Source of the DNA: a virus
Reading direction: 5' to 3' (one strand)
DNA: 64,000 nucleotides
IMG/VR virus record: IMGVR_UViG_3300044683_000172
Location: 1-64,000 of that record
Position numbers and translations under genes: made by a program. The notes beneath the pieces are model-generated. The model had not been told where the DNA came from, made no database searches, and saw nothing but the letters and a program-made list of their open reading frames with translations. The number at the start of each line of letters is the position of its first letter. The first letter of the stretch is position 1. Positions 14,017-27,852 of this stretch are shown here, one piece after another.

Positions 14017-14229
14017 TTGAAAATCTTTCTCAAGTTGGCGTTGATTCTCGCCATGGTGATGCTGATCTCCTTCATGTTGGGAGTCGTCTCGCCGATCCTT
14101 ATCAACTCCGATTCGTGGATCGGCATTGCCGTGCTGCCATTCGTGTGGTTGGCCGTAATCGGCGCCAACATCGTCGTGATCAAGCTTACTTTCTTCTCAA
14201 CCCTCCAACAACAAAAGGAGAACAAATGA
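14017..14229 (+). CDS. small integral membrane protein
   Basis: 70 aa, TTG start after a TAAGGAG SD. Two to three hydrophobic spans. Overlaps the SPFH gene start. Confidence 0.5.
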   Translation: MKIFLKLALILAMVMLISFMLGVVSPILINSDSWIGIAVLPFVWLAVIGANIVVIKLTFFSTLQQQKENK

Positions 14230-15050
14230 AACGATTCCGTTCGCTCATCCTCGCGGCCTTCATCGGCTGCATGTCGCTTCTCGCTGGCTGCGACAACGTT
14301 CCGGCAGGCCACGTCGGCATCCAGGTCTCGCGCTACGGCGGCGACCGAGGCGTCAACATCGACGTGAAACAGCCGGGCCGATATTTCAACGGCTGGAACG
14401 TGGACATGTTCCTGTTCCCCACGTTCACCCAATCGCATGTCTGGGACAAGGCCGGTTCCGATGAATCGTTCACGTTCCAAACGGTCGAAGGCCTGAGCGT
14501 CAACACCGATGTCGGGATCAGCTATACCATCGCGCCCGAGAATGCTGCGAAGGTCTTCCAGAAATATCGGCGAGGTGTCGATGAGATCACGGCCGTGTAC
14601 CTTCGTGCCATGGTCCGCGATACGCTCAACCTTGCCGGCGCCCGTATGGCAATCGAAGACGTGTACGGCAAGGGCAAAGCTGATCTTCAGAAGAGCGTGG
14701 AAGACGACGTGAAGAAGCAAGCCGCGAGCGTCGGCATCACGGTCGAATCCGTGTACTTCGTGAATGAGATGCGATTGCCGCCTTCCGTCGTGAACTCGAT
14801 CAACGCGAAGATCGCCGCGACGCAAGTTGCCCAGCAGAAGGAAAACGAGCTACGCGCAGCCGAGGCGGATGCGGCCAAGGCGATTGCCCAGGCCAAGGGC
14901 GAAGCCGAAGCGACACGAATCCGTGGCGAGGCGCTACGATCCAGCCCGCAGGCGCTCCAGCAGTTGGCAATCGAGCGCTGGGACGGCAAGTTGCCTCAGT
15001 ACATCGGCGCCGGTCAGCCGGTCCCGTTTGTCGGCGCGACGGTGAAGTGA
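14226..15050 (+). CDS. SPFH/band-7 (prohibitin-like) domain lipoprotein
   Basis: ATG at 14226 after AAAGGAG. Lipobox MKRFRSLILAAFIGCMSLLAGC. Body and coiled-coil tail fit the SPFH family. The upstream in-frame extension (13671-) is rejected. Confidence 0.8.
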   Translation: MKRFRSLILAAFIGCMSLLAGCDNVPAGHVGIQVSRYGGDRGVNIDVKQPGRYFNGWNVDMFLFPTFTQSHVWDKAGSDESFTFQTVEGLSVNTDVGISYTIAPENAAKVFQKYRRGVDEITAVYLRAMVRDTLNLAGARMAIEDVYGKGKADLQKSVEDDVKKQAASVGITVESVYFVNEMRLPPSVVNSINAKIAATQVAQQKENELRAAEADAAKAIAQAKGEAEATRIRGEALRSSPQALQQLAIERWDGKLPQYIGAGQPVPFVGATVK

Positions 15051-17675: not shown

Positions 17676-18072
17676 AATGAAGTTCATGATTCTGGCACTT
17701 CTGGTGTCGCTCTTGGTATTCTGCATCGCGCTTGTGCGTTGGTGGATCGTGGTTGGAAGGAAGCCACCCAAGGCCGGCACTTACTGGCCAATGCCGCCTG
17801 TTCCTCCAGCGAATTTGCGGCGCCCTAACGCGAACTACAAGCGCGCCATAGCAGCGGCTGATGCCAGGAATAAGCCGGTCATTTCCAAGATTGAAACAAT
17901 AGGTATGTTTCCTGAAAGTCATATTTGGGCAGTAGTATATCCAATGTTGTACGATCACCTTCGAAATGCAGATGAGGCTAAAGCGTGCGAACATCATGCT
18001 CGAAGACTCAATCTAAAATCCCGAATCGAGAAAAGGAGCCAAAATGAAAGTCATCGCAAAATACAACAATGA
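17665..18072 (+). CDS. membrane-anchored hypothetical protein
   Basis: ATG at 17665 after AAGGAA. N-terminal hydrophobic span MKFMILALLVSLLVFCIALVRWWIVV. Confidence 0.5.
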   Translation: MEPEMKFMILALLVSLLVFCIALVRWWIVVGRKPPKAGTYWPMPPVPPANLRRPNANYKRAIAAADARNKPVISKIETIGMFPESHIWAVVYPMLYDHLRNADEAKACEHHARRLNLKSRIEKRSQNESHRKIQQ

Positions 18073-18419: not shown

Positions 18420-18782
18420 ATGGAATACATGGCAAAACGCAAGCCGGAAGAGTTCCGGCCCATCGATGTGACGTTCCGCATCCAGTCGCAAGCGGAGTTG
18501 GACAACTTACAGCGATTCCTAGCGTTTGATGGTACGGTGCCGTCCGCTGTGCGCGAATACGATGTGACGACTGGGGATGATGCTGCTCTGCGCATCCACA
18601 ATAAACGGCACGGCGGACGGCATTCGTCTGACTACGCCGTCTTCGAATACGATGATGATCTGGCTGGGTTCGTTTTTCGATTCATGGGCGGTCTGCGCAA
18701 TGCAGTGGTGGGTGCATTGGTCGATGATTGCGAACAGAACGGAGCGAGTGCCCAAATCGACGGTGCCGGCTTGCTGAAGTGA
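18420..18782 (+). CDS. hypothetical protein
   Basis: Internal ATG (MEYMAKRKPEEF...) with AAGGAGAAG SD. Last gene before the 1.07-kb non-coding gap. Confidence 0.5.
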   Translation: MEYMAKRKPEEFRPIDVTFRIQSQAELDNLQRFLAFDGTVPSAVREYDVTTGDDAALRIHNKRHGGRHSSDYAVFEYDDDLAGFVFRFMGGLRNAVVGALVDDCEQNGASAQIDGAGLLK

Positions 18783-18785
18783 ACG

Positions 18786-18814
18786 TTGATTCGTTCATCT
18801 GCGCCAACTAAGAT
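18786..18814 (+). promoter_or_regulatory. candidate sigma70 promoter TTGATT-N17-TAAGAT for the non-coding unit
   Basis: Hexamers at 18786-18791 and 18809-18814, 4 nt after the upstream stop codon. Confidence 0.4.
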
Positions 18815-18820
18815 TCGTCC

Positions 18821-19605
18821 TGTGCTGCGTTGATACCGGAGTTTGCCGCGCGACGGCTTTGAAGGTGAACCAAACGGCACGGCGCTTGTAGACCGCTTAA
18901 AGTCTACAGCCATTTATGGGCGAGTCCTTTATTGGACATCACTTGGAGACATCTAAGTGCCCATAAATGGCGGTCCCGGAAAAACGTATAGTCTGCTGCG
19001 TAGGCGTGCGCTGGTGGACGGCAGTACGGCCGTACGGGATCGCCAACCAGTTCCCAGCGTGGAGCGAACGATAACAGACCGAAAGGCGTCTATGCGCTTC
19101 TGGCGCGGTCTCAAGTCTGGTGCGCTTCATAGGCGAGGGTAGCGATGGCAGGCCGCGAGATAGTCTCCCCGTTTGGCGTCTTACGCACTTTGTGAGTGGC
19201 GCCCTTCGGTGTTCGTCTTTGAGGCGCCTTGCAGTGGCGTAACCCATTCCTCAAGGATGAACACCGAAGTCCTGTACGTCTCAGTGGTAGAGCGCGGTGC
19301 GGTATCCAATCCGTGCTGTGTGTCGTCGGTTCGATTCCGATCATGGACTTCAGCAAGCATATTCCGCTCAATCCCAGAACATCGACGGCGTGCGAGCAGG
19401 TGGCCTAGTCAGCCGCCACAACTGTTTCTCGCGGAAGCGCGTCTAAGGGGTTTGAACTACCGGACGCGGCAGAGAATCGACATGGGAAACCGCCTGAACC
19501 TGTCGGACAAGCCGGTACGTCCCGAGTGGCCGCGGTGAACGGTCAAGCAGCCGGTGAACTCACCCGAAGCCCGCGACACGTTGTGAAACGCTCGCGGGCT
19601 TCGTC
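18821..19605 (+). ncRNA. candidate large (~0.8 kb) structured non-coding RNA, class unknown
   Basis: No credible ORF on either strand. 13-bp helix 18909-18921/18959-18971. 21-bp helix 19204-19224/19248-19268 with two G-U pairs valid only for plus-strand RNA. Further helices, an embedded tRNA-like module and a terminator at the 3' end. Confidence 0.45.
19266..19351 (+). ncRNA. tRNA-like element (non-canonical cloverleaf; possibly a degenerate tRNA)
   Basis: T arm GTCGG-TTCGATT-CCGAT, D loop AGTGGTA flanked by CTC/GAG. Acceptor-like stem GAAGTCCTG/CA(T)GGACTTC. 7-bp anticodon-like stem with 8-nt loop TATCCAAT. No encoded CCA. Confidence 0.5.
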
Positions 19606-19610
19606 ATTTC
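19566..19610 (+). terminator. rho-independent-like terminator closing the non-coding unit
   Basis: GAAGCCCGCGA (19566-19576) pairs with TCGCGGGCTTC (19592-19602), followed by GTCATTTC. Confidence 0.5.
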
Positions 19611-19854
19611 TACGCCAGAAACAATCCCATCGTGAGGCGAGCGTATCGACCAAGAAAATGGCGTTCAAATTCGCGTAATACCCATTACGTTAAATTGCCG
19701 TTCGCTTATCGCACGCCAGAATAGCCTCATTGTTTGAGGTTGCGAAACAATCTCTCATCTCACTTCGGCCCTCAACCATTTGGATGAGTTGCCAATGTGC
19801 ATCTCGTCAGGCATGATTGAGTCACCTAAACGAATCTCATACGGAGATACCGAA

Positions 19855-20370
19855 ATGCGCTACTTCAAGATCGACGGCCACTTCAACGTTGTTGCAATCG
19901 CCGAGTCGATGGACGAAGTCAAGGCCGATCTGGACAACGGCGGCCAATGGGCATTCAGCTGGCAAGGTCAGAAGATGGAGATTCGCAATCTGAAGCCGGA
20001 AGGTGGATGGATGTGCCGTAACGACATCGAATCTTGGGAAGAAGCCCAGGCCATCGCAAGTGCGGCAAACGCCTTCTGCGGATCGCCGGATGCCTGGATT
20101 GCCACCGACGCCGGTGAATGGGTCAGCCCGCGCTACGATGTGATCGAAGCGCCTAAAGTCGGTCAGTTCGTCTCGAAGGGCTTCAATGGCGATTACTACC
20201 CGCTGGGCACGATTACGAAGATCAGCCACGACTTCAAGCGCGTTACGGTCGAAAATGAGAACGGCACCAAATACGTCTTCTATCGCAAGAAGATGAGCGG
20301 TGTTTGGTTGCTGAATCGTATGTGGGGACTGGTATGCGGTAGCGTCAACGAGCGCAACCCGCATCTCTAA
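19855..20370 (+). CDS. hypothetical protein
   Basis: Internal ATG (MRYFKIDGHFNV...) with GGAGA SD, in ORF 19780..20370. Confidence 0.6.
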   Translation: MRYFKIDGHFNVVAIAESMDEVKADLDNGGQWAFSWQGQKMEIRNLKPEGGWMCRNDIESWEEAQAIASAANAFCGSPDAWIATDAGEWVSPRYDVIEAPKVGQFVSKGFNGDYYPLGTITKISHDFKRVTVENENGTKYVFYRKKMSGVWLLNRMWGLVCGSVNERNPHL

Positions 20371-20390
20371 TTTCTGACCGATTTAAACAA

Positions 20391-20430
20391 AACGCCCGGC
20401 TCCTGAGTGGAGTTCCGGGCGTTTTCAATT
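20391..20430 (+). terminator. rho-independent terminator (A-tract upstream, so possibly bidirectional)
   Basis: AACGCCCGG-N15-CCGGGCGTT followed by TTCAATTTC. Confidence 0.65.
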
Positions 20431-20448
20431 TCGGTGTTCTAGCCAATC

Positions 20449-20486
20449 AATAAGGCCGACCTAGGCAACGGGTCATCGGCCTTATT
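20449..20486. terminator. hairpin at the end of the convergent minus-strand gene
   Basis: AATAAGGCCGA-N16-TCGGCCTTATT. One arm overlaps the stop codon of 20482..21063. Confidence 0.4.
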
Positions 20487-21063
20487 TCTTTGTGTTCTTG
20501 GCACCATCGGACACATATTCGGGCGCGTCTTCGGTCGATTCCTCGTCGCCTTCCGCGATACCGGCAGCCTGCAACGCATCAGAACGGGCCGCTGCCGTCT
20601 CTTCGTCCATCTCAGGGATGGATTCATAGAATGCGTTGAGGTTCTTCACGGCACGTGTTTTTCCGTTCTCATCCACAAAAGTGATGTTAGCCAGAACATT
20701 CAACTCCTTGATAGCCGCGAGTTGAGTGGAGCACTTGACAAATGGATTGTGCACCATTTGCAGAAGCGAATTGATGGACTTCTTTTGGTTCCACAGCTTA
20801 TCCATCGGCATTTCTGCGAGTCGCTGTTGGAATGTGTTTTGGAACCACGGATTCTGCTCGATCTGCTCGGCGTACATCGAAACGTCTTCAGCACGGTAGC
20901 CAGGGCCAAATGCGCGTCGGAATGCGGTGTACGGCGTAAAGCCATCGATGCGATTCTTCACGTATGACTCATATTGAGGCAAGTTTGCGAGAGCCATACG
21001 CTCTTCAGCAAACATCCTCGGGTCATACGGATCGTGCTCGAATTCGCCTGTCGCTTTGCTCAT
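20482..21063 (-). CDS. possible terminase small subunit (otherwise hypothetical, acidic C-terminal tail)
   Basis: 193 aa. HTH-like FTPYTAFRRAFGPGYRAEDV, then a QLAAIKELNVLANI segment and an acidic tail, loosely like Terminase_2-type small subunits. Weak call. Confidence 0.35.
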   Translation of the reverse strand: MSKATGEFEHDPYDPRMFAEERMALANLPQYESYVKNRIDGFTPYTAFRRAFGPGYRAEDVSMYAEQIEQNPWFQNTFQQRLAEMPMDKLWNQKKSINSLLQMVHNPFVKCSTQLAAIKELNVLANITFVDENGKTRAVKNLNAFYESIPEMDEETAAARSDALQAAGIAEGDEESTEDAPEYVSDGAKNTKK

Positions 21064-21198
21064 GATTTTGGTGATGCCGCGTGTTCGGTTGATGCTCGCG
21101 ATTGTATGTGAACGTGTTCGTCAGAGATAGGAGGTGCTTTGGCTGTCTGTTTTGTGTTAGTTGGGATGCTGTGTACGTGCCGATTGTGGTAGTGCTTG

Positions 21199-21501
21199 GG
21201 TTTGCCGCCCGATAAATCAGAACCACTTGCCTTAATTGTCGGACGGTTTGCCGCGCCCAACTATTGGTCGTTCATTGCAACGCCGCGCGGGCATTGGGTT
21301 TGCCGCGAGTCTGTTTCTTCTTAGTTGTATTAATTGTAATAGTTGTATAAGAAAGAAATACGTATAGGCCCGTACATGTACGATCCCGTAAGAGTCTGAC
21401 GACCCACCCAATTATCCAACTTTCGCAACTATTGGACCTAAGTCCTTGATTCGAAAGAAGAAAGATAGTTGGGCGCGGCACAACTATTAGTTGCAACTAT
21501 C
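21199..21501. repeat. iteron cluster with AT-rich core (candidate origin of replication or pac/regulatory region)
   Basis: GGTTTGCCGC at 21199, 21245 and 21297. CAACTAT(T/C) in both orientations at 21258, 21338(-), 21426, 21464(-), 21481 and 21494. Palindromes CGTACATGTACG (21371) and TAGTTGCAACTA (21488). AT-rich 21313-21362. Confidence 0.6.
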
Positions 21502-21552
21502 TCGCGGCAAGTGTCCGCCACAACAATACATACCGCATCGCGAAACGCACAA

Positions 21553-21578
21553 CAACCAAGAAAAGCGCCCGAAGGCGC
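21553..21578 (-). terminator. rho-independent terminator after the helicase gene
   Basis: Minus strand reads GCGCC-TTCG-GGCGC followed by TTTTCTTGG, 10 nt after the stop at 21588. Confidence 0.7.
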
Positions 21579-21587
21579 ATTCTTCAC

Positions 21588-23348
21588 TCAAAACCCGCCA
21601 TTGGCAGACGATTTATCATCCTCAGCGGCTTCACCCTTGGCATCAGAATAATCACCTTCCTCATCAGCATCACCAATCTTGGACAAAATCCCCTTGTGCG
21701 GGTCTTCAAATTCCTCAACCGACGACCAATCATAAAAGCGATAAATCTTTCGAGCACCAGTGCCGATCACCGATTTCGCCCCCAAAGAAGCGAAGAAAGA
21801 ATCAACGTGGGACGGAATTGCATCTCGCTTTGATATGGCCAAAAGTCTTTGGTGGAACTCAACAGGCTTAATATCGACCGCAAACCGACCATGATTTTCC
21901 TTGCGGCCGCGCCACAAGTGCTTCTGGCACTTCAACAATGCCGTCACACCATAGGTCGCCAGCATCGAATCTTCCACCGCGCCAGACCCTCGATCCATCT
22001 CGTTCTGAGAGAATTTTTGCACCTCATTCGCCACCTGTCCGACCTCGTGATCGAACGCAGCAACGCCATTTTCCTCAATCCAACGAGCGGCCTCGGCCAA
22101 GCACAGCCACATGTACTCTTCGAAGCGACGATCTTGCGAAACAATCATCTCGCATTGATAAGGCGCTGGCTTCCAAGTTTTCTTGCCGTTCTTATCCGGC
22201 AACTGGCCGCAAAACACAGGATAAAAACGTCGGTTGCCCGTGTCATCTCGCTGAAGCCCCTCATACTTATTACCGTCCATCAAGATGATCCAACGCCGCA
22301 GCATCGTCTGCGATCCTTCGAACTTGAAATCAAAGGTATCTGACGAGTTGGTAACGAACGCCTTGACTCGATTCAAGTCGGCGCGCGTAAAGCCTGTCAT
22401 TTCTGGAATTGCCGCGACTACGCTATTGCCGGTGATCGTTCGAAGAAAGTCGATTCGCCCACCGCTCAGGTCCAGCGGCGTGGGAAACATCTTCTCGTCA
22501 CCCATAATCTCGCGCGTGATTCGAGTTCCGAAATGCGACTTCCCGCAGTTCTGGGCGCCAAATAACGACAAGACGATCCCAGCATTGTGGCCGCCATACA
22601 TCACACGCACGTAAAGCGATGTCCAAAAGTACCATCCCATTCGGCGATTCAGCGGCGTATCGAAGCACTCGAACAAATCCATCATGGACGTTTCGAGACG
22701 ATTCTTGCCGTCCCACTCCGGCAGCAACTTCGATAAACGCTCCTTCAATGGGTCGCGCCGAACGCTAAGCGCCCATTCAGCGAACGCATTTCGAACCGTC
22801 TCAGCGTTCTGTCCAAGCAAGTTCAATTCGCCCATCGCTTGGACTAAAGGCTCAATCGAATATTGCTTGTTGATTGTTTCGCCGTTCTCGTCGTTTCGAT
22901 AGCCGGTGAACTCATTATAGAAAGGTCGATGAGGCGAATCCTTATCCTCACCGAACAATAGCTCAAACGCTTTCCACCGATTGCGGTCGCTGGACATGTT
23001 TATCGTCGTCGGCTTTCCAGCGACGATCTTTTCGGTGTACTCTGGGAACTCGTTCAACCCGCTTTGTCGAATGGCTTTGGCGCGGGCAACCAAGTCCGGA
23101 ATCTCACGGATTTCAGCGAGACGACGTTTTGCTTCATCGCTGGAACGAGCCAACGTAATAACATTTAGCCGCGCTGCGTGTCGCGCTTTTTCTTCTCCGT
23201 CGGCGTCGGCGATTGAATCTGGCGCATCTGTCCAATCATCCGGCGAACTTCTTTCACCATCAGCCAGATCGCTTGGCTCCCAAGGCAGATCAGGAGTATC
23301 GTCACCAGGACTGTCAGGAATGTTGTCATTTTGCTTCTTCTTGGTCAT
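21588..23348 (-). CDS. VirE-family / SF3-type replicative helicase
   Basis: 586 aa. Walker A LFGAQNCGKSH, then DDTGNRRFYPV and PEWDGKNRLE motifs characteristic of virulence-associated protein E / D5-like helicases. Confidence 0.85.
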   Translation of the reverse strand: MTKKKQNDNIPDSPGDDTPDLPWEPSDLADGERSSPDDWTDAPDSIADADGEEKARHAARLNVITLARSSDEAKRRLAEIREIPDLVARAKAIRQSGLNEFPEYTEKIVAGKPTTINMSSDRNRWKAFELLFGEDKDSPHRPFYNEFTGYRNDENGETINKQYSIEPLVQAMGELNLLGQNAETVRNAFAEWALSVRRDPLKERLSKLLPEWDGKNRLETSMMDLFECFDTPLNRRMGWYFWTSLYVRVMYGGHNAGIVLSLFGAQNCGKSHFGTRITREIMGDEKMFPTPLDLSGGRIDFLRTITGNSVVAAIPEMTGFTRADLNRVKAFVTNSSDTFDFKFEGSQTMLRRWIILMDGNKYEGLQRDDTGNRRFYPVFCGQLPDKNGKKTWKPAPYQCEMIVSQDRRFEEYMWLCLAEAARWIEENGVAAFDHEVGQVANEVQKFSQNEMDRGSGAVEDSMLATYGVTALLKCQKHLWRGRKENHGRFAVDIKPVEFHQRLLAISKRDAIPSHVDSFFASLGAKSVIGTGARKIYRFYDWSSVEEFEDPHKGILSKIGDADEEGDYSDAKGEAAEDDKSSANGGF

Positions 23349-26872: not shown

Positions 26873-27010
26873 ATGATCAAAAGAAATGGCACATCGATCA
26901 TCTTTGCTTTCTTCGCGCTGATGTCGATCTTTGGTGGTGAAAAGGGCGCTGCGCTCGCATTCTTCTTCTTTTGCGGATTGACTTTGGATTTGAAGAGAGG
27001 GTGTGAGTGA
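26873..27010 (+). CDS. small membrane protein (45 aa)
   Basis: ATG at 26873 after GGAG. MIKRNGTSIIFAFFALMSIFGGEKGAALAFFFFCGL. Confidence 0.4.
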   Translation: MIKRNGTSIIFAFFALMSIFGGEKGAALAFFFFCGLTLDLKRGCE

Positions 27011-27852
27011 AACGAGAAGAGAATGAAATGTTGGACCAAATCAAATTCACTTCCGAGCACGAATTGCCTGTGCAATCCCTAAAGAGATCAGGGATTTACC
27101 GCATCGTATCGCCAAGCGGAAATTTCTATGTAGGAAGTGCTGTTGAAATTCGAAAACGATGGCGCAATCACAAGCGTCAACTTATCTCTGGCGTTCACCA
27201 CAACAAACCGCTGCAAGCTGCTGCCAAAAAGTACGGTTTGGAAAGCCTGCGATTCGAGATCATCGAGCACTGCGATTCTGATGTGCTCATTAACAGGGAA
27301 CAGTTTTACATCGACGCGCTGCGCCCTAAGTACAACACGTGTTTGGTGGCCGGAAGCCCACGCGGCGTGAAGCGTTCCGAAGAGACGAAGGCGAAGGTGC
27401 GCGCCGCGAATGTCGGCAGGAAGCACTCCGAAGAGACGAAGGCAAAACTGAGTGCCGCGAAGATCGGTAAGAGGCTTTCTGAGGACCACAAAGCGAAGTT
27501 GAGCGCGGCACGAATCGGCAAGATCGGCAAGAAGCATTCCGAAGAGACAAAGGCGAAGATGAGTGCGGCACACACCGGTAAGAAGTTTTCTGAGGAGCAC
27601 AAGGCGAAGATGAGCGCCGCGAATATCGGCAAGAAGCATTCCGAAGAGGCAAAGGCAAAAATGAGCGCGACACGAACCGGTAAGAGGCTTTCTGAGGAGC
27701 ACAAGGCAAATATGAGCGCCGCGCTTACCGGCAGGAAGCTTTCTGAGGAGCACAAGGCGAAGCTGCGCGCAGCGCGTCTGGCCTATTTGTCAAGGCGCAA
27801 CGGCGAGATTGGCACTTCGCTCGGATTTTCTTTCCCTGCTGATTCACTTTGA
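27007..27852 (+). CDS. free-standing GIY-YIG homing endonuclease with eight NUMOD3 repeats
   Basis: GIYRIVSPSGNFYVGSAVEIRKRWRNH (GIY-YIG), then 8 tandem SEE(T/H)KAK(L/M)SAAxxGKK units. GTG at 27007 or ATG at 27028. Confidence 0.9.
   Translation: MKREENEMLDQIKFTSEHELPVQSLKRSGIYRIVSPSGNFYVGSAVEIRKRWRNHKRQLISGVHHNKPLQAAAKKYGLESLRFEIIEHCDSDVLINREQFYIDALRPKYNTCLVAGSPRGVKRSEETKAKVRAANVGRKHSEETKAKLSAAKIGKRLSEDHKAKLSAARIGKIGKKHSEETKAKMSAAHTGKKFSEEHKAKMSAANIGKKHSEEAKAKMSATRTGKRLSEEHKANMSAALTGRKLSEEHKAKLRAARLAYLSRRNGEIGTSLGFSFPADSL
27376..27792 (+). repeat. 51-nt tandem coding repeats (NUMOD3 units)
   Basis: Eight 17-aa units (one of 20 aa) inside the endonuclease gene. These generate the spurious antisense ORFs 27088..27755. 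Confidence 0.85.

Follow-up and report, generated by a model that had tools for sequence, protein, structure and literature searches.

A non-coding gap in the early region of an uncultured phage carries a conserved 3' domain with candidate RNA structure

Introduction

The large phage RNAs GOLLD and ROOL have no known function and are known mostly from Gram-positive hosts. GOLLD (Weinberg et al. 2009), whose cryo-EM structure is given in PMC12286853, has a 3' region that is conserved universally and a 5' region that is conserved less, with tRNAs sometimes lying in the linker (PMC12286853). ROOL is a large structured RNA of phages and prophages that is often found near tRNA islands and whose 5' and 3' parts are intertwined and co-evolve. 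Here, we analyze a gene-free gap of 1.07 kb at positions 18783-19854 of a 64,000-nucleotide stretch of phage DNA (IMG/VR record IMGVR_UViG_3300044683_000172, positions 1 to 64,000; hereafter the window), which an original prediction, made from the sequence by itself, had taken for the source of one large structured RNA of ~0.8 kb resembling GOLLD and ROOL or representing a new class. Taken together, the data tentatively favor a model, in which we place slightly less than even confidence, that the gap is a modular early non-coding unit of the plus strand, composed of a lineage-specific 5' part and a new conserved 3' domain that would be the working module of a stable RNA. A small and tractable domain of ~160-200 nucleotides (nt) in the early region of Burkholderia-type lytic phages, the one of host takeover and anti-defence, would be a convenient entry point to the large phage RNAs.

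The locus resembles GOLLD at the level of architecture only, in that both are phage-encoded, ~0.8 kb long and built from a variable 5' and a conserved 3' part. The conserved domain of GOLLD measures ~410 nt and comprises stems P13-P27, whereas that of the window measures ~160-200 nt and has another set of helices; GOLLD has bona fide tRNAs beside or inside it, whereas the window has a degenerate tRNA-like element, and ARAGORN reports 0 tRNAs both here and in L015, the locus of a related phage with a corresponding gap. Moreover, the element of the window is found in two lineages only, with a host that is probably a member of the Burkholderiaceae and not a Firmicute or Actinobacterium, and there is no evidence of a multimer or cage. 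ROOL shares with the locus the large size, the phage setting and the vicinity of tRNA-like sequence; it differs in that the 5' part of the window is not conserved and in that its covariance model finds no match. With Rfam release 15, the whole window gave no match at the gathering score, and permissive filters at E <= 10 over 18500-20000 returned four chance-level matches only. None of the families that had been listed for checking with the original prediction (GOLLD, ROOL, tmRNA, group I/II introns, Y RNA/YrlA and RNase P) matched in the window, nor did OLE or any known riboswitch or ribozyme, and the L015 gap likewise matched no known Rfam family. Membership in GOLLD or ROOL is therefore not supported, and what persists is a likeness to GOLLD in layout. 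One could still argue that the element is a divergent GOLLD, ROOL or other known large RNA that the Rfam models missed, on the grounds of its GOLLD-like architecture (PMC12286853), its phage setting and its length of ~0.8 kb; however, neither GOLLD, ROOL nor OLE reached E <= 10 or the gathering score, the conserved domain is less than half as long as that of GOLLD, and the Proteobacteria host contrasts with the mainly Lactobacillales, Mycobacterium and environmental sequences in which GOLLD occurs, so that we regard such a hidden membership as barely credible.

Results

The gap extends over 1072 base pairs (bp), from the stop codon TGA at 18780-82 to the ATG at 19855. Independent gene calls on the identical Logan contig L003 left the same 1072 bp empty, and in these calls the gap is the largest gene-free stretch among the 20 kb displayed. 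The 13 open reading frames (ORFs) within it have codon scores of -0.31 to +0.01 per codon, all negative or near zero, against a reference of +0.195 on average and +0.002 at minimum for the called genes of this phage, and the eight longest of them gave no credible match to Pfam or PHROG. The stretch 18783-19854 is non-coding, as the original prediction had proposed. Separately, a second and smaller uncalled stretch of 368 nt at 17676-18043 has a coding score of at most 0 and no fold excess on either strand.

Relatives were reached via VapE, a 193-amino-acid (aa) terminase-small-like protein and Band_7, giving loci L004-L026, of which only L015/L016 carry the element. VapE, the 193-aa protein and cluster members gave five related lineages with 57-65% VapE identity. 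In the P0004 lineage (L015; VapE 62% identical), a gap of 1015 bp lies at the matching place, L015 2715-3729, with the RNA sense on the minus strand. The P0005 lineage (L008, whole early block) and Burkholderia phage WTB (L019, ~7 kb shown) are tightly packed and have no gap; none appears in P0003 (L006/L014) or P0002 (L011) either, whose contigs extend over 2-3 kb of the early block, and the element is absent from BcepF1. Wider searches yielded one locus without the element in a JGI metagenome scan, no relatives of this phage clade in IMG/VR and 0 matches to four patterns scanned there, no blastn homologues of the gap in phage or plasmid collections, and 7 matches in a pattern scan of GTDB genomes, all of which are chance matches by covariance model. 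Judged from this distribution, the element appears to be accessory and modular.

The similarity between the two gaps is concentrated at the 3' end, where blastn aligns 19459-19571 with L015 3159-3054 at 68% identity over 116 nt (E = 1e-6). Within the conserved core of this 3' domain (19466-19565, plus strand), RNAalifold predicted without prior input three helices that were then fixed on the two-sequence alignment: P2 (19478-82/19501-05), P3 (19511-16/19550-55) and P3a (19524, 19527-30/19542-45, 19548). P2 carries an 18-nt loop (19483-19500) that is almost invariant, reading UGGGAAACCGCCUGAACC in the window and AUGGAAACCGUUGAACGU in L015 with the pattern (A)UGG(G)AAACCG..UGAAC, and the internal-loop bases ACAA, ACGU, GAG and AGCAGC are conserved between the two phages as well. 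All 16 core pairs form in both phages; seven of them vary and none is broken, five having changed on both sides (three of these in the 5-bp P2) and two on one side to or from G-U, while sliding the partners by 1-3 columns as a control brought pairing to 13-47%. The original prediction had made its RNA reading depend on compensatory changes in related phages, and in these two sequences such changes are present. A covariance model of the core (R1) scores 110 bits on the window and on L015, and it detects nothing further in the window, in 33 loci or in BcepF1, nor any second copies. In addition, an indel within the P2 loop shifts every reading frame of the conserved block between the window and L015, and the conservation therefore does not derive from coding.

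In this alignment, then, the 3' block is conserved and its three helices are kept by compensatory changes. The domain of ~160-200 nt appears to be the only part of the gap under visible selection, and on comparison with described families it would be a previously undescribed domain of two lineages. The whole unit is not shown to be one RNA. The long-hairpin and tRNA-like signals are non-conserved; it is the thermodynamically unremarkable 3' block that carries the evolutionary signal.

The sense strand of the element is plus, because several conserved pairs are G-U on that strand: read from the opposite one, pairs G46-U90, U51-G85 and G64-U78 (numbered by alignment column) would turn into C-A mismatches. 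This asymmetry also bears on the alternative that the gap acts as DNA, that is, as a replication origin, a packaging site or an operator cluster whose palindromes work in double-stranded or cruciform form. Primase and helicase genes and the terminase-small-like gene lie nearby, and long palindromes are indeed present. However, the two strands fold unequally in both phages (z -5.07 on plus and -2.99 on minus for the 801 nt of 18815-19615; z -5.42 sense and -2.33 antisense for the L015 gap), the G-U pairs of the conserved helices and of a 21-bp stem described below are lost as C-A mismatches on the other strand, iterons and an AT-rich tract are lacking, and the spacer at 21064-21587 with its repeated motifs is a better candidate for an origin. 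We consider a DNA-level element highly improbable.

What surrounds the conserved block in L015 differs from the window. The early proteins called in the window all lack homologues in the compared DNA of the L015 lineage, and downstream of the gap a 171-aa protein (phrog_9742) of the window, also without a homologue in that DNA, faces a 48-aa ORF in the L015 lineage. Inside the L015 gap, at 3487-3374 on the minus strand, there is a GTG-started ORF of 37 aa with two CxxC motifs (VEDSGYEECICCGEMEYDSCEDICYACGYQEEPDEAE) and a GAGG ribosome-binding site, called as a gene in one assembly, of which the window has no remnant; the L015 gap further holds ~165 nt of other hairpins. These comparisons address the possibility that the gap is evolutionary debris, made of one or more decayed genes, a pseudo-tRNA and leftover hairpins, in which the shared block would reflect recent ancestry or recombination. 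Such an origin would fit the lack of conservation in the 5' 600 nt, the failure of the tRNA-like element with every tRNA caller and the dispensability of the element in relatives, with only two lineages carrying it. Against it, all similarity has vanished around the block, which is itself 68% identical, all seven of the variable pairs still pair, and the retention of 1 kb of junk in two lineages would be unusual for such tightly packed genomes. Furthermore, the gap contains no ORF remnant and no protein-family trace, and no reading frame is conserved between the two phages; a pseudogene or missed gene was accordingly rejected. We therefore deem debris an improbable explanation.

The core is flanked by further conserved elements. 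On its 5' side, a conserved segment at 19423-19435 on the plus strand, (U)UCUCGCGGA in the window and UCUCACGGA in L015, would provide the 5' strand of candidate closing helices. In one option it pairs with GAGAA at 19472-76 (the L015 equivalent being UUGAUCUC/GAGAUUGG), giving a UCUC/GAGA helix in both phages; in the other, a 7-bp outer helix 19423-29/19617-23 (AGAAACA) is formed, which is present in the minimum-energy fold of the window and has counterparts in L015. The long-range pairing 19153-60/19427-34, thought by the original prediction to enclose a central domain, is an exact 8-bp complement, but chance would produce ~5 such 8-mers in 800 nt, and L015 has no counterpart of it. On the 3' side, the inverted-repeat scan and the fold place hairpin P4 at 19565-19603 on the plus strand, with a perfect 12-bp stem (19565-19576/19592-19603) and an inner stem of 4 bp that ends in a GNRA tetraloop, GUGA. 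L015 has two P4-like hairpins past P3, the second of which (2864-2812) has the closest flanks and a GAAA cap; ~190 nt, including one of these hairpins, are inserted between P3 and the GNRA-capped hairpin in that phage. With flanks and tail, P4 reads UCACCCGAAGCC...GGCUUCGUCAUUUCUACGCCAGAAAC in the window and UCUCCCGCAAGCC...GGCUUGCGUCAUUCUAGUGCAAAGAC in L015. By analogy to RNAs with tertiary contacts, for which GNRA caps are typical, GUGA and GAAA hint at a tertiary fold. The conserved 3' tail UCAUUUCUACGCCAGAAACA follows at 19604-19623 on the plus strand and corresponds to GUCAUUCUAGUGCAAAGACU past the second hairpin of L015.

Is P4 a terminator, as originally proposed? The hairpin is strong, one bp longer than thought and has a 15-nt loop, but its U-tract is weak (tail UCAUUUCU, 5 U of 8), the terminator scan reported nothing on the plus strand within the gap, and the tail sequence is conserved in L015. 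Given the weak U-tract, P4 and its tail do not look like a canonical terminator, and the conservation suggests that the tail is part of the conserved domain, with a structural role, rather than of a simple terminator.

The surroundings of P4 raise the question of whether the gap encodes a free-standing RNA at all. Small early genes form a co-directional block here, and the gap stands close to its end, just ahead of the last gene (171 aa) and a convergent terminator. The gap could be a cis-acting element of the early operon that offers sites for RNA processing or stability, that terminates or attenuates transcription, or that acts as a put-like signal for antitermination. Its position inside this block without a canonical plus-strand terminator, the P4 hairpin with its weakly U-rich tail, the long perfect duplexes of a kind that is typical of RNase III sites and the conserved promoter are all compatible with this explanation. 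On the other hand, a processing site or terminator would need nothing as elaborate as a domain of several helices with GNRA caps, compensatory changes and a loop of 18 invariant nt, four related phages of the same operon layout lack the element, and the downstream genes differ between the two phages that have it. Because only one gene stands between the element and the convergent terminator, antitermination would also have little target. For these reasons we find a cis-acting element unlikely, though a genuine contender. A regulator in cis of one particular gene is disfavored by the differing downstream genes, and the 171-aa gene seems to have its own promoter-like site, TTGCCA-17-CATGAT, which the promoter scan placed outside the RNA at 19789-19817 on the plus strand, 165 nt past the 3' domain, with GGAG 9 nt ahead of the ATG at 19855.

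Transcription of the gap would start from the sigma-70-like promoter TTGATT-N17-TAAGAT at 18786-18814 on the plus strand, which begins 3 nt past the upstream stop codon, exactly where the original prediction had it. This promoter matches 8/12 consensus positions, lies under the threshold of the promoter scan and has no further exact copy in the window. L015 has a counterpart, TTGATT-N17-TAGTCT at 3733-3705, which overlaps its upstream stop codon; the promoter segment TTGATTnGTTCA matches at 11/12 positions between the window and L015, and in the aligned promoter regions TTGATTcGTTCA...TAAGAT of the window corresponds to TTGATTaGTTCA...TAGTCT of L015, both at or directly past the upstream stop. 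The 13-mer GCGCCAACTAAGA at 18801-18813 on the plus strand, within the promoter of the window, is also matched exactly by L015 3335-3323, where it stands immediately 3' of the 37-aa ORF; ~0.016 such 13-mer matches are expected by chance between two 1-kb stretches.

Between promoter and conserved domain lies the 5' part, ~600 nt at 18815-19422 on the plus strand, which has no significant similarity to the L015 gap: the ~600-650 nt from promoter to block gave a Smith-Waterman score of 39 against a shuffle mean of 43, which is not significant. This part has no match in phage, plasmid or IMG/VR collections, and no antisense target for it was found within the phage. Nevertheless, the helices read from the sequence by the original prediction are nearly all there on the plus strand, two of their arm ranges deviating by 1 nt. 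The inverted-repeat scan extended the 13-bp perfect helix 18909-18921/18959-18971 to a 16-nt stem, 18906-18921/18959-18974, that is 94% complementary and encloses a structured loop of 37 nt (local z of hairpin 18906-18974, -4.8 on plus and -2.6 on minus). The bulged hairpin at 19087-19135, with helix 19087-97/19122-35 of 7 bp + 4 bp and the T19089-G19133 wobble as described, is part of the minimum-free-energy fold and is not significant alone in a scan of 150-nt windows. The 21-bp hairpin at 19204-19269 has arms 19204-19224/19249-19269, the 3' arm being displaced by 1 nt from the earlier reading, and a local z of -7.15 on plus and -3.0 on minus; its sole non-Watson-Crick positions, G19215-T19258 and T19218-G19255, are G-U on the plus strand and C-A mismatches on the minus strand. 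The 21-bp stem exceeds chance, 0 matches to its arm being expected in shuffles, and so does the folding of the whole region, as judged from its z on the plus strand.

The 150-nt scan places the fold excess at 18875-19024 (z -4.8), 19175-19324 (z -7.2) and 19475-19699 (z ~-3), with values near 0 elsewhere. Since the excess is confined to three long hairpins, thermodynamics alone do not demonstrate one continuous ornate fold. The proposal of a single large structured RNA of ~0.8 kb thus stands in its non-coding nature, its plus-strand structure, its promoter-like site and its tRNA-derived element, but falls short in that only the 3' ~160-200 nt are conserved, and the whole gap as one ornate RNA of ~0.8 kb is not shown. 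An origin of the long hairpins from a MITE/REP-like repeat family was dropped, each arm occurring once only.

In early transcripts of phages, RNase III typically acts on long perfect duplexes, as in the T7 early region and the lambda N leader; sites of the T7 type usually have an internal loop. The 21-bp hairpin resembles them as a ~20-bp near-perfect, RNA-strand-specific duplex in an early polycistronic region, and it differs in not being conserved in L015. It is a candidate RNase III-type duplex.

The 5' part also contains a degenerate cloverleaf at 19266-19351 on the plus strand, where the original prediction had recognized a tRNA-like module. Its parts, read directly, comprise a perfect T-loop GGTTCGATTCC in a T-arm GUCGG-UUCGAUU-CCGAU, a canonical D-loop AGTGGTAGAGC (AGUGGUAGAGC) and a 7-bp acceptor stem GAAGTCC/GGACTTC; folded in isolation, it forms a four-way junction of -33.1 kcal/mol. 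The only exact occurrence of GGTTCGANTCC in the window is in this element, besides one GGTTCAAGTCC on the minus strand. With T-loop, D-loop, acceptor stem and four-way junction the element resembles phage tRNA genes, but its anticodon-like loop UAUCCAAU measures 8 nt, extra segments of 4 nt and 3 nt are inserted where the acceptor stem joins, and CCA is not encoded. ARAGORN reported 0 tRNA and 0 tmRNA in the window at default and inconsistent junk calls at relaxed thresholds, and the best score within the tRNA clan is the sub-threshold Rfam tRNA-Sec match of 15.6 bits (E = 8.8; gathering score 47), which covers exactly 19266-19351 and is the most relevant of the four chance-level matches. By its sequence features, the element is clearly derived from a tRNA. 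It is absent from all relatives checked, including L015. The 4 nt with which it starts also end the 21-bp stem, and thus the two structures compete.

A reading of this element as a remnant attP was rejected: the tRNA-Val gene used as integration site by a temperate relative bears no relation to it. In that relative (L021 14098-15462; 57% VapE identity), a tyrosine integrase gene lies beside the tRNA-Val gene at the contig end.

Finally, we compared the conserved domain with RNAs outside the GOLLD and ROOL families. The P2 loop at 19483-19500 shares a split identity of 18 nt, GGGAAACCGC ... 36 nt ... CUGAACCU, with the 3' four-helix-junction region of OLE (P12.2-P15; PMC7936274), taken here from the OLE RNA of Clostridium acetobutylicum, and in either RNA a hairpin with a GUGA cap lies near a multi-helix junction. 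In contrast to this short motif, the covariance model gives no match, alignment of the whole domain scores no better than shuffles and the elements follow another order; OLE is an RNA of Bacillota that is accompanied by Oap proteins. Homology to OLE was therefore rejected, and the split match, noticed after the fact, may be due to chance or to a small shared motif. A role as a CsrA/RsmA sponge was dropped as well, GGA motifs being not enriched and mostly paired.

Discussion

In the model that we tentatively favor, the sigma-70-type promoter directly past the upstream stop codon would start a plus-strand transcript that runs first through the ~600-nt lineage-specific 5' part, with its long RNA-type hairpins and degenerate tRNA-derived cloverleaf, and last through the 3' domain of ~160-200 nt (~19423-19623), in which the P2 loop hairpin, a two-tier P3/P3a, P4 and the conserved tail would follow one another. 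The 3' domain might bind a protein or another host or phage factor via its invariant loop and junction bases and act as a scaffold or decoy. The 21-bp duplex, as a possible target of RNase III, and the tRNA-like cloverleaf, as a possible target of RNase P and RNase Z, could serve as handles for processing and stability, through which the 3' domain would be freed from the early transcript. For an RNA of 19423-19623, we propose the change of GGAAACCG to CCUUUGGC as a loop-mutant control.

Several observations weigh against this model. The covariation comes from two independent sequences only, 14/500 column shuffles reach the observed values, and with two lineages the support from covariation is thin. 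For the core, the comparative fold amounts to -12.1 kcal/mol (-24.1 when completed under constraint) against -31.5 for the unconstrained minimum, and the core has no local fold excess (z -0.2). In the window, both candidate closing helices and helix 19153-60/19427-34 are mutually exclusive, which leaves the closing helix ambiguous. L015 has the domain without the tRNA-like element and with the 37-aa ORF in its gap, and the domain therefore does not require the 5' modules. The window contains no site complementary to the invariant P2 loop, and the transcript ends, the processing and the stability of the RNA are all inferred.

If the model holds, the window phage and L015 might be the founding members of a new modular class of phage non-coding RNA in lytic phages infecting Proteobacteria. 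Such a class would parallel the design of GOLLD, with an early promoter, a variable 5' region that takes up tRNA-derived modules, hairpins or a mini-ORF, and a conserved 3' domain that would be the active part, possibly self-assembling or protein-sequestering, in host takeover or counter-defence. In its entirety, we think this extension rather unlikely.

The window lies within a ~69-kb phage contig that encodes Terminase_3, a VapE-type primase-helicase, a RepB-type primase, Thy1, RNase T, a DNA polymerase III alpha subunit and a SNF2 helicase. With protein identities of 36-40%, the closest cultured relatives are the Burkholderia phages BcepF1, Maja and WTB and the PB1-like phages of Pseudomonas. 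The early block contains, at 14226-15050, a Band_7/SPFH (prohibitin-like) gene that shares 74% identity with genes of Burkholderia prophages, phiE125 gp43 among them, which points to a Burkholderiaceae host. Its copy in the RNA-bearing relative is 77% identical, and among the close relatives with 57-65% VapE identity, in the regions seen, only the two RNA-bearing phages have Band_7. From these protein comparisons, the phage is probably an uncultured BcepF1/PB1-like myovirus of a host within the Burkholderiaceae. In the early block of the P0004 lineage, seen in gene tables only, an Acb2/Tad1-like protein (PF24729, the family of anti-CBASS/Thoeris sponges) is encoded beside Band_7, and the early region of the RNA-bearing relative is thus likely an anti-defence neighborhood.

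Beyond the gap, strong folds on both strands (z -4.5 and -3.8) at 20375-20524, between the convergent genes of 171 aa and 193 aa, most likely represent a bidirectional terminator, and the terminator scan reported a site at 20470-82. A minus-strand spacer of 524 nt at 21064-21587 separates the VapE gene (21588-23348) from the 193-aa terminase-small-like gene (20482-21063). It corresponds to a gene-poor spacer of 620-690 nt in related lineages, of which only short blocks are conserved, and contains AATAGTTG/CAACTATT at least 5 times, with both orientations represented, and GCGGCAAACC 3 times; this spacer may act as an origin, as a late-promoter region or in packaging. Lastly, a gene of the GIY-YIG/NUMOD3 homing-endonuclease type at 27007-27852 lies directly upstream of a helicase gene in the replication module.

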